A stretch of 52,842 nt of DNA from a virus (lineage: Duplodnaviria > Heunggongvirae > Uroviricota > Caudoviricetes), in the IMG/VR virus record IMGVR_UViG_3300006153_000005; one strand, given 5' to 3'. Positions 13,001 through 38,411 of this stretch are shown here, one piece after another. The position numbers were made by a program, and so were the translations under genes. Position 1 is the stretch's first letter, and every line of letters begins with the position of its first letter. The notes under the pieces are model-generated. The model made no database searches. It was not told the DNA's origin and worked only from the letters and a program-made list of their open reading frames with translations.

Positions 13001-16000
13001 ACCTTCGCTTCCAACACGGCCTTATCCGCTTCCAGCTTGGCAACCTCTGCATCAATCTGTGCGTCCAACTCGGCCTTTTTTCCTTGAATAAACGAGTTGA
13101 CAACACCCTCGTTCAGAATAACCTGTCCATCAGCAGATACTTGAGCATTGTTGAGAATTTCAGGATAAACCTTAGCGAACTCCAAAGCCTTGTCCAATGA
13201 CAGCGAGAACCCATTTGCAACCTCAGCCTGCAGTTCTGCAAGGGTTTGGAACGAATCGGAGACAGAATCAATGGTGCTTGCTACGTTGGAAAAGTTGTTT
13301 AGTGCCGCACTATAAGCATCCAGACTTCCCGTGATATTTCCATACAACGACTCATAAATTGCCAGCTTATTTTGGTTAGCAGCAATAGCGTCGGTATTCT
13401 CATTGATTTCATTTGTTGCCTTAGCAATCAAATTACTCCATAGACCGCCATCACTACCAAGCTGACGTTGCTCCTCATAATAAGCAATATTCTCACGTAA
13501 AGCCTCATTTTGCTCTTCCAACGAGTCGATTTCCTTTTGGATTTCGGCCATCTCATTCTGCATTTTAACATTGGCGTTTTCTTTCCATGCCTCAGTATTG
13601 AGCTTGACAACCCCATTTTCTTCATAGAGATAATCAAGATAATTGTCCTCAGCAGAAGCCAGCTTTTCAATAGTATCAGCAGACAACCCTCCGCCGTCTG
13701 CCATCTCTTTTTGAGCCGCCTCCAAAACATCATAAGCTGATTTCAGTTTTGAAAGCACCTCTGGCAACTTTTGAAGCTGTGCAATATAGCGACCCGTCTC
13801 CTCAGAGGCTCCAGCCAAATCCTCAGCATAGAAAGCCGCGAAATGCGACTGGCTTTTCAGAACAGAGTCAACAGCGTTCGCAATATCTTGACTTGAGCCA
13901 ATAAATTCTCCGCTCTCCTCAGCCGCAGCTATCACGCTCTGCCGATAGTCGTTGAACTCATCTTCCGTAGACGGGATCTCATTTTCAATCAAGCCTTGCA
14001 ACATATACTGTTCAGCCAAATTGTTGTTCAACGACGAAATACTGTCCTGATAACTCTTTACTGCGGATGAGCATTTGTTGTAGGCATCAAATAGGGCATT
14101 GTAGACTTCGTTATCCGAACCAGCAGTTTCAGACACAATATCCAGCATTTTACCCAACCGCTCATAGGCGTTAATGACTCCCTCAACAGTTGAAAGATCA
14201 AAATCATCCTCACTGGGCAACCACAATTCCATACCACGTGGAGCAAATGAGCCATCCGAAATGTATCCAGCGTCAACCAGAGCTTGCAACCCTTTCCGGT
14301 TAATATCCGCTTCATCTGCTCCCCATGTTGTAATTATGTGGTTCATTGATTTGTTGGCGGGGCCAGAGCCTTTCCCAGTTGATAAAAGCTCATCTTTTTG
14401 AGCGTTAAGACCACCACGCAAATCGCGCTCAGACGCTTGGAGAGATTCTATCGCGGCTGCTTTAATTGCGTCCGTAAGGTTCCCGTACTCTTCGGTCAAC
14501 TCCTGGATTCGATCTTTTTCTATTCCGAGCTTGTCAATAAGCTCGTCTTGGGTAGAAAGCAAATCTTCCTTGACAGAATCATCTGTTTTAACAGCTTCGC
14601 TCAACTCCAAGTAGCGACCTGTCAAATCCACAATTTCATCGCTGAGTGTAGCCGCCGAGTTCGCAGCATCAATCGCCGCTTGACGAGCTTCCTCTTGCGC
14701 CTGCTTATAGCTCTGCCACGCCTGCACCAATGCCATAACCGCAGTTACCGCCAGCATAATCCACGTCATGGGATTAGTCGCCATAGCTGCAAGCGCTGCC
14801 TTGGCATTTGCGCCGACAACTTTCCATGAAAATGCTTGGGTTTCGTTTGCCGCAGCTTGTTCCAAAGATGCAATAATCGCCTGCTTTTGGGTAGCGGTCA
14901 ATTTGTTGGAATTTAGAATTTCCACCATCATTGCGGCAGAAAGCTGTTCCGTTGTTCTCTTTTCAGTGGCCTTTGCCATATTTTTAGCAAGGGCTGAAGC
15001 GGTCGCTTTATCCGTAGACGCTTTTTCGGCAAGCTCCTGGATTGTATATCTTTGGGCAGAAACAATTAGAGCAGACATCGTTGTGATCTGTTTCTTCTGC
15101 TCCGCAGTTAGTCCAAGTGCGCTCATAGCAGCTGCCTGTTGAGACTTGTCCAGCCCTATCAGTTTCGTAGCATAGAATTGTACGCTTGCCGCACTACCAT
15201 CCATAGCTACCCCAGATGCCTTAATTGCATTTACAGCAGGCAATACTGTAGTTTGTAAAGACCCCATCGTCGATCTGAACTTTGCAATCAGTGCAATGGT
15301 TGTGATAAGAGCACCAGATCCAAACAAACCAAGAGACTGTGTTAAACGGTCAATCACGTTAGAAACAGCAATCAGGCCGTCAACAACCAATTTCAAATCA
15401 TCGGTCTGAAATAGATTTTGGGCAACGCCAACCCAGGTCTGTTGTAGAGTATTGAGCTTGTATTCCAAAGACTGGGTAATCTTATCCATTTCGCGTTCTG
15501 CACTACCAGCACTATTCTCCATTGTTTCGATAGCTTTTTGAGCCTGCTCAAAATTGGAAAGAATAGCCGAACCAATCTGGCCTTGCCGTTTGCCGAACAA
15601 AACTTCCAGCAGTTGTGCCCTGTTCTTATCTGTCAGCTCATCCCAAATTGTTGCGATATCTTGAAGAATGTCATATGTGGAACGGTAAGTATCGGGATCG
15701 CCAACTTCAAACAGTCTAACACCTTGGTTATTATTGCTGGCAACTTTGGTAAGATCCGCAATATCCCCTGTCAATTCAGCGACATCGTTTGAATACTCTT
15801 CAAGTTCTTCGTCATACCCACGAATACGCATAGACACAGTTTTCAGAGCATTACCGACACTGGAGGCATCTCTTGTAATCTCCACAGCGGCAGTAGCCAG
15901 AGCCACAGTTTCCTCAAAAGTATTATTCGCCGCTTTCATTGCTGAAGAGCTTCTGGTCATAACCTCTACGATATCCTTATTGGAAACAGCAAATTTATTG

Positions 16001-33190: not shown

Positions 33191-33216
33191 ACTGCGACCT
33201 CCCTTCTTAATATGAC

Positions 33217-33252
33217 AAAACCTCGGAAATCCGAAGATCCCGAGGTTTTTTT
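33217..33252. terminator. Bidirectional terminator-like hairpin between RNA island and packaging genes
   Basis: AAAACCTCGG/CCGAGGTTTT 10-bp stem; T7 tract on plus strand, T4 on minus strand. Confidence 0.65.
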
Positions 33253-33271: not shown

Positions 33272-33347
33272 TGGTGCGCCTAAAGGGACTCGAACCCCCG
33301 GCCAACTGGTTAAAAGCCAGCTGCTCTACCAACTGAGCTACAGGCGC
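33272..33347 (-). tRNA. tRNA-Lys(UUU)
   Basis: Cloverleaf; anticodon loop CTTTTAA; TTCGAGT T-loop; encoded CCA. Confidence 0.97.
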
Positions 33348-33354
33348 ATATATA

Positions 33355-33645
33355 AGGGTGGGTAGGGTCTGTGTGGCCGTATCCCACTGGCCTACCCTCA
33401 CTGATACGGGTGCAAAACATACTTTTTCAGGCTCTCGAAGTCCCGTTGGGGTATGTTAGCCCGCCGCGCTCCTGATCGGCTATGCCGCTTTGCTTACAGC
33501 GTTTAGGTTATCTATCGCGTTTTGCCTGCGCCGGAATTTCACCGGAGGGAGCGACCCCTATGCTACCCACACTCGGTCAATTTTTATTTTACCGACGTGT
33601 CAGAACCGTCACACGTCATCCAGGGTAGAGGTGTGCCTTTTCAGG
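33355..33645 (-). ncRNA. Large ornate RNA, 3' domain (GOLLD-like)
   Basis: Hairpins GACGUGU/ACACGUC, CCGG-UGAAAUU-CCGG, CAUAC/GUAUG; long-range GUGGGUAG(33570-63)/CUACCCAC(33365-58); crossing CAGGC/GCCUG; no credible ORF. Confidence 0.6.
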
Positions 33646-33646
33646 C

Positions 33647-33723
33647 TGGTGGGTTGAGAAGGTAACGATCCTTCATCCTACGGTTTTTCAGACCGTCGCT
33701 CAGACCTCATAAGCCATCAACCC
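33647..33723 (-). tRNA. tRNA-Phe(GAA), atypical T-loop
   Basis: Cloverleaf; loop CTGAAAA; T-loop ATCGTTA; CCA. Confidence 0.85.
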
Positions 33724-33856
33724 ATATATGCGCATTTTTGTTTAACGGTAATCACAGGTCAGCGCATAAGACCACCGCCCGTTTCGTAGGGGTAACGCCT
33801 TTTCGTACCGTTTATCATAGGGTCGTTAGAAAATGGTAAATATCAACACATCCCGT

Positions 33857-33947
33857 TGGCGACGGAGGTGGGATTTGAACCCACGGACGGCTCATCACCG
33901 CCTCCAGTTTTCAGGACTGGTGCCATCAACCACTCGGCCACTCCGCC
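33857..33947 (-). tRNA. tRNA-Ser(UGA), C33
   Basis: Long variable arm; G73; anticodon loop CCTGAAA; CCA. Confidence 0.92.
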
Positions 33948-33998
33948 ATTTGAACCCGACCTTGTTTTAGTTGCATATCGGGTAGCAACAAACACTTG

Positions 33999-34085
33999 TG
34001 GTAGGGGAGGTGGGAATCGAACCCACTCAGCCCGAAAGCAACGGATTTACAGTCCGCCCCAGCTCTCCAACTCTGGCGCTCCCCT
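33999..34085 (-). tRNA. tRNA-Tyr(GUA)
   Basis: Class II cloverleaf; loop CTGTAAA; CCA. Confidence 0.95.
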
Positions 34086-34091
34086 ATATAA

Positions 34092-34430
34092 ATTGCATAA
34101 GTGACTCCACTCCCAGCCTCACCACACACCTTTACGCTGTGCCATATTTCAGCCTTTCTATCGGGGAGCAGGGGGATTAGTGTTTCCCATCTGAGTCTAC
34201 CAAGGTATTTCGATGTACATGACATCCGTTGCACATATCCACGCTTCCGCAGTTACGTGGCTGTTGCCATCTGTGTGCGGCTATGGCCTGTGCGCAGCTT
34301 CCGCAACGCCCTCGATAGTACAACGCTACCTAACCGCTCTTTCTTTTATGCCCAGTCACTCCCTCACAGGAGGCCACCTTGGATTACGACCGCCACTCAC
34401 AGCCGTGATATGTTATCTCAATCGGGCAAA
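34092..34430 (-). ncRNA. Large ornate RNA, 5' domain (GOLLD-like)
   Basis: Multiple hairpins; long-range GUGACU/AGUCAC and crossing CCAAGGU/ACCUUGG; 11/12-bp helix to the 33625-33636 segment. Confidence 0.5.
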
Positions 34431-34432
34431 TA

Positions 34433-34508
34433 TGGAGCTGGTGCAGGGACTCGAACCCAGAACCCACCGCTTACAAAACGGTTGCTCTACCATTAGAGCT
34501 ACACCAGC
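34433..34508 (-). tRNA. tRNA-Thr(UGU)
   Basis: Cloverleaf; loop TTTGTAA; CCA. Confidence 0.96.
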
Positions 34509-34511
34509 AAA

Positions 34512-34587
34512 TGGAGCTGACGCAGAGACTCGAACTCTGAACCCGCTGCTTACGAAACAACTGCTCTACCATTGGAGCTACGTCAGC
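34512..34587 (-). tRNA. tRNA-Thr(CGU)
   Basis: Cloverleaf; loop TTCGTAA; CCA; near-paralog of the adjacent Thr tRNA. Confidence 0.95.
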
Positions 34588-34588
34588 A

Positions 34589-34662
34589 TGGCAGGGGCCG
34601 AAAGATTTGAACTCTCACCAAAAGTTTTGGAGACTTTCATGCTACCGTTACACCAGACCCCT
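34589..34662 (-). tRNA. tRNA-Trp(CCA)
   Basis: Cloverleaf; loop CTCCAAA; G73; CCA. Confidence 0.95.
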
Positions 34663-34665
34663 ATA

Positions 34666-34741
34666 TGGCGACCTCGGCGGGTTTCGATCCCGCTACCTCC
34701 AGCGTGACAGGCTGGCGCTCTTCCGATTGAGCTACGAGGCC
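34666..34741 (-). tRNA. tRNA-Asp(GUC), T-loop begins with A
   Basis: Cloverleaf; loop CTGTCAC; T-loop ATCGAAA; CCA. Confidence 0.93.
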
Positions 34742-34744
34742 ATT

Positions 34745-34975
34745 TTACTTATCCCAAGGTATTTTATCATCTAAATCCAGGGGAGACTTCGCTGTACTAA
34801 TTTGTTCATATCCGTCTTCAACCTTGCGCCATAAAGTAAACCGCATCCTTTCCAGACATTGAGTTATGAAATATTCCTGTCCGGTTGTCGTAATACAATG
34901 AACACCAGTCCCATTCTCAGAAGAAGGAAATTTTCTCACGATTTTCGGTTTATTATCAGCAGATCCTCTTGCCAT
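34745..34975 (-). CDS. Small hypothetical protein embedded in tRNA array
   Basis: ATG 34975 (MARGSADNKPK) behind RBS AAGAGGAG; fills the gap between tRNA-Glu and tRNA-Asp. Confidence 0.7.
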   Translation of the reverse strand: MARGSADNKPKIVRKFPSSENGTGVHCITTTGQEYFITQCLERMRFTLWRKVEDGYEQISTAKSPLDLDDKIPWDK

Positions 34976-34990
34976 AGCTACTCCTCTTTT

Positions 34991-35067
34991 TGGTGATGCC
35001 GGAGAGATTTGAACTCTCAAACTCCGCCTTGAGAGGGCGGCGACTCTACCAATTCGTCCACGGCACC
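34991..35067 (-). tRNA. tRNA-Glu(CUC)
   Basis: Cloverleaf; loop CTCTCAA; CCA. Confidence 0.94.
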
Positions 35068-35072
35068 AAGTA

Positions 35073-35149
35073 TGGTACTCCCAGCGAGGCTCGAACTCGC
35101 ATTACCGGCTTGAAAGGCCAGCCTCCTATTCCAGTTAGAGGATGGGAGC
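35073..35149 (-). tRNA. tRNA-Glu(UUC)
   Basis: Cloverleaf; loop CTTTCAA; CCA. Confidence 0.94.
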
Positions 35150-35157
35150 ATATATTA

Positions 35158-35296
35158 AGATGTGGGCGAGGATTTGCACCTCACATAACCCAGCCAGAGC
35201 TGGAGTCCTCCGGTTGTATCGTCTTTGTCAAACGCCGCACAGCTCTCCACCACTGTCTTACGACTCCATAGCGTCTACCTATTCCGCCACCACATC
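35158..35296 (-). ncRNA. tRNA-like RNA with expanded anticodon arm and no encoded CCA
   Basis: Acceptor GAUGUGG/CCACAUC; Leu-type D arm GCGGAAUAGGUAGACGC; UGGAG/CUCCA stem enclosing ~58 nt; T arm GAGG-UGCAAAU-CCUC. Confidence 0.75.
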
Positions 35297-35298
35297 TT

Positions 35299-35372
35299 TG
35301 GCAGGGGTGGCTGGAATCGAACCAACGATGCGGGAGTCAAAGTCCCGTGCCTTACCATTTGGCGACACCCCT
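35299..35372 (-). tRNA. tRNA-Gln(UUG)
   Basis: Cloverleaf; loop CTTTGAC; G73; CCA. Confidence 0.95.
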
Positions 35373-35381
35373 AAATCGCTA

Positions 35382-35410
35382 TTGTATTTTTCTCAGAAAT
35401 ATGGTATAAA
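35382..35410 (+). promoter_or_regulatory. sigma70-type promoter of the antisense small gene
   Basis: TTGTAT-N17-TATAAA with extended -10 TG. Confidence 0.7.
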
Positions 35411-35444
35411 CTTCTTGTAGCAAACTTTATAAGGAGGCGTAACC

Positions 35445-35642
35445 ATGGCTGAGGAAAAGAAAACCGTTACTCGTAGGAAACGCACACCGGAACAACGTAT
35501 CAAGGACATCGACGCCCAGATCGCAAAGCTACAAGCAGAAAAAGCAGAGCTTGAAAAGCCAATCAAAATCCAACAGATCCTGGCAAAAGCATCCGATATG
35601 TCTCCCGAAGAAATCGCTGAAAAGCTCGGTATTGAGCTGTGA
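35445..35642 (+). CDS. Small coiled-coil protein, stand-alone unit antisense to the tRNA array
   Basis: RBS AAGGAGG; own promoter and terminator; MAEEKKTVTRRKRTPEQRIKDIDAQIAKLQAEK. Confidence 0.85.
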   Translation: MAEEKKTVTRRKRTPEQRIKDIDAQIAKLQAEKAELEKPIKIQQILAKASDMSPEEIAEKLGIEL

Positions 35643-35649
35643 TTTCTCT

Positions 35650-35675
35650 CCCCGCCGAAAGGCGGGGTTTCTTTA
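35650..35675 (+). terminator. Intrinsic terminator
   Basis: CCCCGCC-GAAA-GGCGGGG followed by TTTCTTT. Confidence 0.85.
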
Positions 35676-35751
35676 TGGAGATACCGATAGGATTTGAACC
35701 TACGATCCTGGGGTTGCGGCCCAGAGCCTTACCAATCTTGGCTACGGTATC
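35676..35751 (-). tRNA. tRNA-Cys(GCA), C33
   Basis: Cloverleaf; loop CCGCAAC; U73; CCA. Confidence 0.93.
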
Positions 35752-35865
35752 ATAACGGGCCTAACAGCGTGTATCGTTGCCTTATGCAATCACTGTTTCC
35801 ACTCTGAATAGAGCGTGTCAGGGTTTCTGGTTTTCCCTCCGCCTACTATAAACCCTTGTTCGGCT

Positions 35866-35951
35866 TGGTGCTGGTGGTGGGACTTGAACCCACACGCCAT
35901 TTCTGGCAACAGATTTTGAGTCTGCCTCGTCTGCCATTCCAACACACCAGC
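35866..35951 (-). tRNA. tRNA-Leu(CAA)
   Basis: Class II cloverleaf; loop CTCAAAA; CCA. Confidence 0.95.
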
Positions 35952-35959
35952 GTGTTTCC

Positions 35960-36024
35960 TACGGAGCACATTTTGGGTTGTCAATTAAAAGTTGATTCCA
36001 AAAAAAAGTTGCTGTTAGTGCTCC
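35960..36024 (-). ncRNA. ACAGCAA stem repeat, copy 1 (displays a Lys(UUU)-type anticodon loop)
   Basis: GGAGCAC-UAACAGCAA-...-UCAA[CUUUUAA]UUGA-...-GUGCUCC-GUAG. Confidence 0.6.
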
Positions 36025-36026
36025 AA

Positions 36027-36110
36027 TGGTAGGGATAGTGGGAGTCGAACCCACACGCGAACTGCGTCGGAACCTAAATCCGGTGCGTCTGCCAATTCCG
36101 CCATATCCCC
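36027..36110 (-). tRNA. tRNA-Leu(UAG)
   Basis: Class II cloverleaf; loop TTTAGGT; CCA. Confidence 0.95.
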
Positions 36111-36334
36111 ATAAAACCATCCAAGGCAATCTGATCGTCACCAGTTGCAAGGAGCTGCGGCCAGCTCCACATGGCTGGTAATATCCCACTTGGCTCTACG
36201 TTCACTAACGGTTTGTGGGCAACCAACAGGTATTTTTCCCTGCTCCCATCCCTCCACTATTTGCTAAAGATGCCAGGGGAGCCGGCACCTATCATCATAT
36301 CTGCCAAAGTAGAGAAGTCACAGATATAATAGAT

Positions 36335-36410
36335 TGGAGTGAGAAACGGGACTTGAACCCGCAACATCCGACTTGGAAGGACGGCGCTCTACCAGTTGAG
36401 CTATTCCCAC
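36335..36410 (-). tRNA. tRNA-Gly(UCC)
   Basis: Cloverleaf; loop CTTCCAA; U73; CCA. Confidence 0.96.
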
Positions 36411-36567
36411 ATATTGACCTACTCACACCGTAGGCCATGGTGCCAACTCTCTGCTGTTGGGACGCAGCGGTTTCGCTTGAAACCTGCTAAAAGTTTTCAC
36501 TGCCAGATTGTGAACATTTCTATTCCCCATTCAGTTTACAGTCTCCGCTCTGTTTGTGGGGTGGGCA

Positions 36568-36643
36568 TGGTGGCGGGAGTGGGACTCGAACCCACGATCT
36601 CCAACTTATGAGGATGACGAGATGACCGCTTCTCTATCCCGCT
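36568..36643 (-). tRNA. tRNA-Met(CAU), initiator-like but atypical
   Basis: A1xC72 mismatch and fMet-like D arm, but the anticodon stem UCAUC/GUUGG lacks the three G-C pairs; CCA. Confidence 0.85.
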
Positions 36644-36719
36644 ATATGTTGGCAGTTCTAAAAACAGCACCGATGTAGACATCAGTTGCCTGTAAACTCT
36701 CTGCCATGTTTTGAGCTAC

Positions 36720-36796
36720 TGGCTGGCAGGGTGGGACTCGAACCCACGACCCTCTGATTAACAGTCAGATGCTACTGCCATCTGAGCTACCCGCCA
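36720..36796 (-). tRNA. tRNA-Asn(GUU)
   Basis: Cloverleaf; loop CTGTTAA; G73; CCA. Confidence 0.95.
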
Positions 36797-36806
36797 ATAC
36801 TTAGGC

Positions 36807-36953
36807 TACGAGACGCGAAAAAAATGGAGGTGGTTATCCTTGTCGGACTTAAAAAACATTTGATAGAATATTTTGAAAATTTGCTGTGCGCGTCTCACAG
36901 GACACTTTTTTTCTTTTTTACCTTAAAAAATTATAAATTGCTGTTAGTGTCCC
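36807..36953 (-). repeat. ACAGCAA stem repeats, copies 2 and 3 in tandem
   Basis: GGGACAC-UAACAGCAA...GUGUCCU-GU (36897-36953) and GAGACGCG-CACAGCAA...CGCGUCUC-GUAG (36807-36896). Confidence 0.6.
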
Positions 36954-36959
36954 TATGTA

Positions 36960-37384
36960 TGGTGGAGCCGAGGGGATTCGCACCCCTGTCCGAAATTCCT
37001 ACATGAGCAAGACCTTCTTACACAATAGACGATTTTCCAGCGATGCCTTGCGGCGGGCACTTGCGATACCGTCAAATCTTTCCTAGGGCGTACTGGTTTG
37101 TACACCTCCACCACCTTGTCTTTATTTTACAGAAGCACAAGGAGAAACTGCACGTGCTGGATGATTCTTTAACCGCAGACGCTTACCCATATCCAGCTGG
37201 TGCGTCGTTTTGGAATCCAGCCACCAATCAGGCAGCAGCCCTCTCAGCCACAAAAGCAGCAAAAGCGGGGTGGATCATTACAACAGATTCAGTGTTGTCA
37301 TTTCATTTTTAGGTATGCCTTTAGGCGGTCATCTACCTGTGAGTCTTGCACTCTCAAAACCCCGTCGAATCTAAAAACGGCCCC
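36960..37384 (-). ncRNA. ssrA: tmRNA
   Basis: 5' GGGGCCG..GAUUCGAC; G3.U70; 3' T arm plus ACCA; tag frame 37299-37228 = DNTESVVMIHPAFAAFVAERAAA*. Confidence 0.95.
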
Positions 37385-37407
37385 ATATAGAATTGTCAAA
37401 GTACCTA

Positions 37408-37483
37408 TGGTCGGGACGAGAAGAATTGAACTTCTGACCGCACGATTATCAGTCGTGTGCTCTACCAACTGAGCTATATCCCG
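37408..37483 (-). tRNA. tRNA-Ile(GAU)
   Basis: Cloverleaf; loop CTGATAA; CCA. Confidence 0.96.
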
Positions 37484-37597
37484 ATTTAGCGATATGCGTC
37501 CGAAGAACCTCGTTCATGACCGATAGGTTTCTGACAGGAATAGTAGTTAAGTAATGAACTGAACCACACAAGCGTCAGCATAACCAACATATCTTGC

Positions 37598-37673
37598 TGG
37601 TGGAATTAGGGAGGATCGAACTCCCGACCTCCTGCTTGCAAAACAGGCGCTCTCCCAACTGAGCTACAACCCC
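37598..37673 (-). tRNA. tRNA-Ala(UGC)
   Basis: Cloverleaf; G3.U70; loop TTTGCAA; CCA. Confidence 0.97.
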
Positions 37674-37699
37674 ATACATTGATTTTGTTTGTTTCTAAG

Positions 37700-38332
37700 G
37701 AAAATTTAATCTTTCCATCATACTCACCACTGGGCCTTCGCCCTACCTCCATAATCTTCTTCATTGTTCCGCCACCAGGGAGACAAGTCTGAGCTTCGGG
37801 GAGCGACCCCTAACTTCTTGCCCCAGCGCCATAGCGCCACCTCCTACGTGAGCCTGTTTACTCACAAATTTCACCGTTCGTTCAGAAAAGTTTTGAATTA
37901 AATACTTACTTTTATAGTAATTTCTTCAAAAGATTTTGCAATCTGTCCTACGGCTACTCTAACCAGTGACTTTCGTTATAGCCGGATTTCTCCGACATCA
38001 AGACAGGAGCGCATTGTTGGTTTTACCTCCGTATCTCTCGGCTACCACACCGAGCTACTGCAAGGCTTATTCTCCACAGGAGCGTCTATTGTTGCGCCCG
38101 AAAGTTCTGTGCGTTATGAAGCGATAACTCTTGGCGACATATGTTTCTGTTGGCGGTTTCCGCCTCCCCACCGTACATCACTGTACAGTAGCGGCCTCAC
38201 TTGAAAGGTATCCCTATGCTACGATGTCCATAGACAATCGCCAAGTCAAACCGAAAATACCATACGCCTCGGAGTGCTGACACACTTTGTTCACCGAGTT
38301 AGTAATAAGCATGATGCAAAGATTAAATTTTC
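37700..38332 (-). ncRNA. Large ornate RNA, ROOL-like (633 nt)
   Basis: 5' and 3' ends pair over 32 nt (31 pairs, 4 of them G.U on the minus strand); dense internal hairpins; no ORF; tRNA-array context; size fits ROOL. Confidence 0.72.
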
Positions 38333-38343
38333 AAGGAACATTG

Positions 38344-38411
38344 ATTTTGTTCGCCGCTATGGTTATAGTATAGCACGCTCTGAACCAGATGTCAATAGCG
38401 GCGAACAAAAT
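38344..38411 (-). promoter_or_regulatory. sigma70 promoter of the RNA island, bracketed by a perfect 17-bp inverted repeat
   Basis: TTGACA(38395-90)-N17-TATACT(38372-67) with extended TG; arms ATTTTGTTCGCCGCTAT (38344-60) and ATAGCGGCGAACAAAAT (38395-411). Confidence 0.85.

Follow-up and report, generated by a model that had tools for sequence, protein, structure and literature searches.

In phage T4, the transfer RNA (tRNA) cluster also encodes the stable RNA species 1 and 2 (rnaC and rnaD), which are co-transcribed with the tRNAs and freed by tRNA processing. Mycobacteria, their phages and plasmids carry tRNA array units, some with a transfer-messenger RNA (tmRNA) or GOLLD (PMC5966550, PMC12803027, PMC4758250). 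Such a unit has been defined as at least 20 tRNA genes at a density of at least 2 per kb (PMC4758250). ROOL and GOLLD adjoin tRNA islands in phages (bioRxiv 10.1101/2024.12.08.627333; PMC5737381). Other members of ROOL form protein-free multimeric nanocages by cryo-electron microscopy, and in Ligilactobacillus salivarius the abundance of ROOL is reported to be 16S-like (bioRxiv 10.1101/2024.12.08.627333). Phage tRNAs have been proposed to counter tRNA-targeting defences (PMC10264068, PMC11464382). The window analyzed here, a stretch of 52,842 nucleotides (nt) from the Caudoviricetes record IMGVR_UViG_3300006153_000005 of IMG/VR, carries on the minus strand of 33272-38322 an RNA island of ~5 kb that encodes ROOL RNA in full length along with 19 tRNAs and a tmRNA. 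An initial annotation made from the letters alone had singled out this island as a candidate undescribed system. The kind of island, a phage tRNA array with ROOL and tmRNA, is already known. What stands of the proposal is that several structured RNAs within it lack an Rfam family and apparently represent undescribed RNA families. Taken as a whole, the locus is probably an accessory RNA cargo island of a temperate gut Oscillospiraceae phage, set in a hypervariable slot that has the HU/exonuclease genes on one side and the terminase module on the other, with individually mobile modules, RNAs released by tRNA processing and a role in translation support.

ROOL is the first RNA of the island (37713-38322, 610 nt; this and all features below are on the minus strand unless stated otherwise). 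It matches RF03087 at 348.5 bits, against a gathering score of 99.1, over the entire model (1-574 of 574), and tRNA-Ala starts 39 nt downstream. Homologs at 74-84% identity are present in the related loci L011-L015 and L034, with 387 bits in L013. The initial call of a ROOL-like RNA is thus borne out by a full-length Rfam match in a phage context near tRNAs. The 19 tRNA genes (33272..37673) were called by ARAGORN and were all confirmed by Rfam at gathering thresholds, in agreement with the number and strand first annotated. They comprise Ala, Ile, Asn, Met, Gly, Leu (two), Cys, Gln, Glu (two), Asp, Trp, Thr (two), Tyr, Ser, Phe and Lys. A CCA is encoded on all 19 tRNAs and on the tmRNA. Each spacer starts directly after a CCA and stops at +1 of the next tRNA, a layout that would allow release by RNase P and 3' processing, as had been proposed. 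The longest uninterrupted spacer is 347 nt, while some adjacent tRNAs of the array are separated by only 1-5 nt.

The tmRNA (36960-37384) matches RF00023 at 72 bits, against a gathering score of 47, over model positions 1-374 of 374. Its acceptor stem has a G3.U70 pair; the 5' GGGGCCG pairs with CGGCTCC, which is followed by ACCA, and the tag of 23 residues ends in ERAAA-stop. ARAGORN makes no tmRNA call in the window and does call the homologs in L014 and L034. The score above threshold, the G3.U70 pair, the CCA and the tag frame together uphold the tmRNA assignment, and as far as its sequence goes the molecule looks chargeable. Two of the tRNAs, tRNA-Ser(UGA) (33857-33947) and tRNA-Cys(GCA) (35676-35751), have C33 in place of the near-universal U33. 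This replacement is consistent with the idea of phage tRNAs escaping nucleases through altered anticodon loops.

The Thr-Tyr spacer holds a multi-branched structured RNA of ~331 nt, termed RNA-A (34098-34428), which was defined by alignment and covariation. The alignment comprises 22 distinct sequences from mouse and human gut, gathered by pattern scans of viral and metagenome collections; the pattern-scan loci L092, L097, L107, L113, L114, L120, L126 and L127 were excluded after alignment as unrelated coding DNA. The fold predicted by RNAalifold is closed and multi-branched, with 73-83 pairs and long-range helices, and on 13 sequences it has 83 pairs, 11 of them compensatory. Across the 22 sequences, 98.8% of cells are paired. 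Double-sided changes occur in 7 pairs, compared with 3.3 +/- 1.0 in shuffles (0/500), and register slides give 0-3. A copy with only 68% identity, in the host-family genome G064, keeps the fold, with 39 pairs unchanged, 9 changed on one side and 10 with double changes. RNA-A is not coding, because its hairpin indels are not multiples of 3. The long plus-strand open reading frames (ORFs) across it are a by-product of high nucleotide conservation, and the indels break their frame. Base pairing is possible between the 3' tail (GUCACU) and the loop of the second 5' hairpin (AGUGGC), and inspection of the G064 copy by eye finds one compensatory change there, with both sides altered (AGCGGC and GUCGCU). 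This double change suggests that a pseudoknot closes the RNA.

A second structured RNA, RNA-B, lies within the 299-nt Phe-Lys spacer. Its core of 147 nt has seven helices (33414-33559) and was delimited by a covariance model and by covariation. In 15 distinct sequences, the seven-helix consensus shows double-sided changes in 12/31 pairs. A covariance model, R1, built from these 15 sequences retrieved 26 copies among the loci searched. In the 26-copy alignment 99% of cells are paired and 17/31 pairs have double-sided changes, against 5.8 +/- 1.6 in shuffles (0/500; register slides 0-4), with covariation in all seven helices. RNA-B is found in 2/150 of the one-per-species host-family genomes searched. 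Helices 1-3 and the conserved loops persist in divergent copies from two host-family genomes. One of these copies lies in a different tRNA array and the other has no tRNA within 3 kb. Against Rfam 15, even the laxest filters and E<=10 brought up nothing but noise for RNA-A and RNA-B, and their core sequences do not occur in the full texts searched. Both are real structured RNAs without an Rfam 15 match, and they appear to be undescribed.

RNA-A and RNA-B together correspond to what had been annotated as a GOLLD-like RNA. On that reading, ROOL and a giant GOLLD-like RNA share one operon as a coordinated cage or decoy, and the Thr-Tyr and Phe-Lys spacers are the two domains of the latter, laid out across three tRNAs (33355-34430). 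The layout superficially fits the GOLLD architecture of a variable 5' region, a linker that sometimes contains tRNAs and a conserved 3' region (bioRxiv 10.1101/2024.12.08.627333), and both spacers are indeed structured RNAs. However, the GOLLD model RF02032 has no match at E<=5 on the island, none at E<=10 with the laxest filters on 33300-34480, and, at E<=10, none in five phage records, namely that of the window itself and four related ones. The candidate domains are also found apart: RNA-A occurs without RNA-B in L012 and L048, RNA-B occurs without RNA-A in L014, L018, L022, L057, L063 and L087, and in L023/L024 the two are adjacent in reversed order. RNA-A further occurs alone in other phage lineages. 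Because each occurs alone and their order can reverse, RNA-A and RNA-B are separate modules, and the GOLLD-like reading is very hard to sustain; the region consists of two independent RNAs. Membership in GOLLD itself was rejected on the absent model match, the separable and reorderable domains, and spacers of at most 347 nt vs ~800 nt or more for GOLLD. A whole-length RNAduplex comparison of RNA-A with RNA-B gave z = -2.1 against mononucleotide shuffles; the global duplex is forced, so this value neither supports nor opposes pairing between the domains.

The genomic contexts of RNA-A extend beyond tRNA arrays. Of 26 distinct loci, 11 are in tRNA arrays of the present phage family, one is L118, and 14 belong to another phage lineage. 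In L118, RNA-A lies directly upstream of genes for RlaP, a CCA-adding enzyme and a Thg1-like enzyme. The 14-locus lineage has no tRNA within 5 kb of RNA-A and, where the locus is long enough, an RNA ligase (PF09414 with a PHA02142 OB fold) nearby. A chromosomal copy is upstream of a Band-7 gene, and the start of the next ORF has a weak, sub-threshold match to the PHA02142 OB fold. In L118 and the L119 group, a protein gene bearing a ribosome-binding site (RBS) follows RNA-A directly in the same orientation. This arrangement would suit a cis-regulatory leader, riboswitch-like or protein-binding, that was later captured by a tRNA array. In the 11 array loci, however, RNA-A is followed by a tRNA rather than an ORF. 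The downstream genes also differ, encoding RlaP, a 145-amino-acid protein without a name, or a Band-7 protein, and 300-375 nt with closed ends would be unusually large for a leader. A leader is therefore improbable. We instead propose, tentatively and at somewhat less than even odds, that RNA-A represents a previously undescribed class of phage RNAs that are large (300-375 nt), highly conserved and capable of forming a pseudoknot. RNA-A would form a mobile tRNA-maintenance or RNA-repair module, residing in arrays or beside RlaP, CCA-adding enzyme, Thg1 and RNA ligase, and may serve as a scaffold, decoy or substrate mimic against tRNA-targeting defences. As part of the same proposal, gut-Clostridia arrays would be a reservoir of undescribed RNA classes released by tRNA processing.

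Three further spacers are supported as structured RNAs by covariation among homologs. The Ala-Ile spacer RNA (37484-37597, ~105 nt) has a closing stem and three arms; in 15-16 distinct sequences its 28 pairs are 99.8% paired and 10 have double-sided changes (0/300 shuffles; slides 0-1). The Met-Gly spacer RNA (36411-36567) has 34 pairs in 8 sequences, of which 11 are double-sided, against 6.7 +/- 1.4 (0/300 shuffles; slides 0-2). Its strand is assigned from context, because the antisense folds about as well. The Ser-Phe spacer RNA (33724-33856) shows 7 double-sided changes among 35 pairs in 8 sequences, against 2.3 +/- 1.2 (0/300 shuffles), and its consensus minimum-free-energy z-score is -3.3 for the sense strand vs -0.9 for the antisense. 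In the Asn-Met spacer there are 4 covarying pairs (3/300 shuffles; four sequences only). The Gly-Leu and Leu-Cys spacers have no usable full-length homologs.

A small hairpin module recurs in the array. Two hairpins with an ACAGCAA motif lie in the tmRNA-Asn spacer (36797-36959) and a third copy is in the Leu-Leu spacer, after tRNA-Leu(UAG) (35952-36026). The three copies share a 7-8 bp stem, (U/C)AACAGCAA, a U/A-rich insert, the complementary strand and then GU(A/G)G. Because two copies directly follow a CCA end, the module may be a processing signal. For the Leu-Leu hairpin, the 7-bp stem is kept in 12 sequences and 4 pairs covary, which is not significant (41/300 shuffles); covariation is likewise not significant in the tmRNA-Asn and Tyr-Ser spacers. 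The expectation that nearly every spacer folds into an element of its own thus holds in part: five covary (RNA-A, RNA-B, Ala-Ile, Met-Gly and Ser-Phe), whereas three are not significant and two, described below, are protein-coding.

The spacer structures could also act only in cis, as processing or insulating elements with no function once released. They would then direct RNase P or 3' nucleases, keep adjacent tRNAs from misfolding and shield ends. The elements do abut the tRNA ends exactly, many spacers are short hairpins, and the small repeated ACAGCAA hairpins stand directly after CCA ends. Against this, spacers of 1-5 nt suffice between other tRNAs of the array, and the long invariant stretches in RNA-A and RNA-B go beyond what an insulator needs. 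At 15 distinct loci from two other phage lineages, RNA-A has no tRNA within 5 kb. The 3.3 kb around a divergent copy on a genome contig are likewise free of tRNAs, and the RNA-B copy of L151 is also away from tRNAs. A purely cis-acting role for the spacers is accordingly rather unlikely.

Comparison of relatives supports a cargo island with mobile modules. The region from HU to phrog_3314 was followed across more than 50 relatives, where it ranges from 0.9 kb with one tRNA up to 6.6 kb. Its tRNA content varies from 1 to ~24, with relatives reaching 22-24, and ROOL and tmRNA are each optional. Other protein cargo of the slot, judged by sequence, includes a GIY-YIG endonuclease-like, a TnpB-like transposase-like, a DUF6273-like and an RNA-ligase-like ORF. 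Because slot contents shuffle among relatives, the island is a mosaic of mobile modules. The initial annotation had suggested a coordinated translation-protection or decoy system. The shuffled contents argue for independently useful modules and not for one co-adapted machine; translation support is the part of the suggestion that we retain, as a proposal. Slots of relatives also hold a drum RNA (68 bits) and a 6A RNA (47 bits). In L043, a group I intron (72 bits) lies upstream of the slot and a slot ORF resembles a TnpB-type transposase by sequence. The sites of these two RNAs and the intron are L043:12218-12329, L043:8406-8775 and L057:12866-12914.

Metatranscriptome contigs in three studies point to expression of the island, with ROOL especially abundant. 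In six metatranscriptome runs, 82-99% of the sampled words of the island are present. Contigs from four studies were placed on 29-43 kb and values were taken as per-contig depth; stretches without cover and the flat profile of run X15 were given no weight. The contig that covers 35.9-40.5 kb is 165-1018 deep, compared with 14-25 for late genes, a 10-60x excess (three of the four studies). In run X19, a ROOL-only contig reaches 4879, against ~14 for late genes (one study). The stretch with RNA-A, three tRNAs and RNA-B (33.4-34.6 kb) has a depth of 130-155, against 9-29 in neighbouring contigs, or ~10x (two studies).

Sequence signals for transcription are found at both ends of the island. At its 5' end, a promoter scan identified TTGACA-17-TATACT with an extended TG (38395-38367), which has 11/12 consensus matches and confirms the strong sigma70 promoter that had been annotated. 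Near-consensus promoters are also found 3' of the HU gene in several divergent lineages. The promoter is enclosed by a perfect 17-bp inverted repeat (38344-38411), whose arms covary in relatives at 5/17 pairs (0/300 shuffles; 4 sequences only). Because the arms covary in three relatives, the symmetry itself is taken to be under selection. The repeat could serve a dimeric regulator as its operator, or fold as a hairpin in read-through RNA. An intrinsic terminator (33215-33251), conserved in 16 sequences, closes the island after tRNA-Lys and is followed by the RBS of the phrog_3314 gene. The promoter and terminator of a single-promoter island are therefore present. One promoter giving one uniform 5-kb transcript is nevertheless too simple, because contigs enter from upstream genes and depth falls at ~35.9 kb.

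In the mechanism that we propose, host RNase P and 3'-end nucleases would cut the precursor at each tRNA and at the tmRNA, and ROOL and the spacer RNAs would thereby be freed as discrete species in stably folded form. The cargo would keep translation running in infection: where tRNA-targeting defences deplete or cleave host tRNAs, phage tRNAs would substitute for these or exceed them in number, and stalled ribosomes would be rescued by the tmRNA. RNA-A would act in the sphere of tRNA maintenance and repair, where the roles suggested above may apply (scaffold, decoy or substrate mimic). A defence-countering role fits because RNA-A has RNA-repair neighbours and C33 is present in two anticodon loops.

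Several points weigh against this cargo model. The covariation of RNA-A is modest, because its sequences are extremely conserved. RNA-A is linked to RNA repair through three or four gene neighbourhoods, and the 14 loci that make up the largest group all come from one phage lineage. The function of each unclassified RNA is read from context only. The expression data are at contig level, without strand, transcript ends or processing sites, and run X15 is flat and may reflect DNA carry-over. RNA contigs extend unbroken from ~40.5 kb into the island, across the HU gene, and contig depth drops 5-60 fold near 35.9 kb in three studies. This fall lies just upstream of an antisense protein-coding cassette (35373-35675), which, with its GC hairpin, may attenuate the array.

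That cassette contains P0002, a plus-strand gene of 65 amino acids (35445-35642; AAGGAGG, 7 nt, ATG) with its own GC-rich intrinsic terminator (35650-35667, plus strand). P0002 is conserved at 54% amino-acid identity, and is likewise antisense, in L018/L022. The other protein gene, P0001, is a conserved, RBS-led ORF of 76 amino acids (34745-34975; GAGGAG, 6 nt, ATG). Its homolog is intact in nearly all relatives, including single-tRNA slots, and is duplicated in L048/L068. Neither protein has a significant Pfam or PHROG family match, and the relatives of P0001 are proteins without a name. P0001 is the slot's most constant occupant, and the array seems to have grown up around it. P0001 and P0002 are the only RBS-led ORFs among the spacers that are free of overlap with RNA genes. 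With these two protein genes in its spacers, the island does not consist of RNA genes alone.

The Gln-Glu spacer contains a tRNA-like RNA (35150-35298), in keeping with the initial annotation. It has conserved acceptor, D and T arms, and its acceptor stem covaries among family members. It is of class-II type, with an insert of ~53 nt in place of the anticodon arm and no encoded CCA, and was called neither by ARAGORN nor by the Rfam tRNA model. Inserts of the family vary from ~45 to ~150 nt. L013 holds two more members, at 417-641 (225 nt) and 15055-15170 (116 nt), and the 116-nt form has a second T-arm-like hairpin inside its insert.

Upstream of the island, flanking-gene annotation gives an HU-like protein gene and an exonuclease gene. 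Downstream are genes for the phrog_3314 protein, the large terminase and the portal, and an integrase is 11 kb off. These predicted flanking genes mark a temperate phage. No RNA-repair domain was found among the early-region ORFs of the window that were scanned. In megablast against GenBank phages, matches are tRNA-sized only, and the nearest of the genomes compared, G001, matches at tRNAs only. The DNA is present in mouse and rat gut metagenomes, and related prophages are found in Oscillospiraceae, for example Dysosmobacter and Hominicoprocola. Cultured strains with related prophages (Dysosmobacter segnis BX15 and Hominicoprocola fusiformis CLA-AA-H269) make the locus testable at the bench. 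The structures of ROOL and GOLLD have been solved and their functions have not; the main clue to the latter is their association with phage tRNA islands. A natural experiment on what these RNAs do is offered by the locus and its more than 50 syntenic relatives, in which ROOL, the tmRNA and each accessory RNA come in varied combinations. The locus also yields at least two well-supported RNAs without an Rfam family, and RNA-A links tRNA arrays to RNA-repair cassettes.

Several described systems resemble parts of this locus. YrlA RNAs are structured noncoding RNAs in Rsr/RtcB RNA-repair operons, and RlaP is a component of such operons. The common theme is RNA-repair company, with tRNA mimicry in the island, while RNA-A is ~3x larger. 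Matches to YrlA on the island are only sub-threshold and overlap real tRNAs (25 bits vs 69), and the short flanks that were available show no Ro/Rsr gene. Like rnaC and rnaD of T4, the RNAs here accompany a phage tRNA cluster; they differ in being unrelated in sequence, in their greater number and size (to 331 nt) and in the occurrence of RNA-A outside arrays as well. GOLLD shares the phage tRNA-array context and the large structured RNAs flanking tRNAs, but exceeds 800 nt, compared with 331 nt for RNA-A and a 147-nt core for RNA-B, and the candidate domains here are independent.

ROOL itself is no different from the ROOL known in prophages: it is full-length and high-scoring, stands directly upstream of tRNAs, is apparently co-transcribed with them and, in one metatranscriptome, looks highly abundant, which matches the 16S-like level reported for Ligilactobacillus salivarius. 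What this locus adds is that ROOL comes first after a dedicated promoter and that relatives which are otherwise syntenic may have it or lack it. At 3.7 per kb in 5.1 kb (19 tRNAs, tmRNA and tRNA-like RNA), the array exceeds the density set for a tRNA array unit, with a tRNA count one below 20. The mycobacterial arrays are likewise dense tRNA clusters on mobile elements, with a tmRNA and a large noncoding RNA and a proposed role in anti-defence or translation support. The present island differs from them in its Oscillospiraceae host, in carrying ROOL and not GOLLD, and in adding at least five RNAs without an Rfam family and two protein genes.

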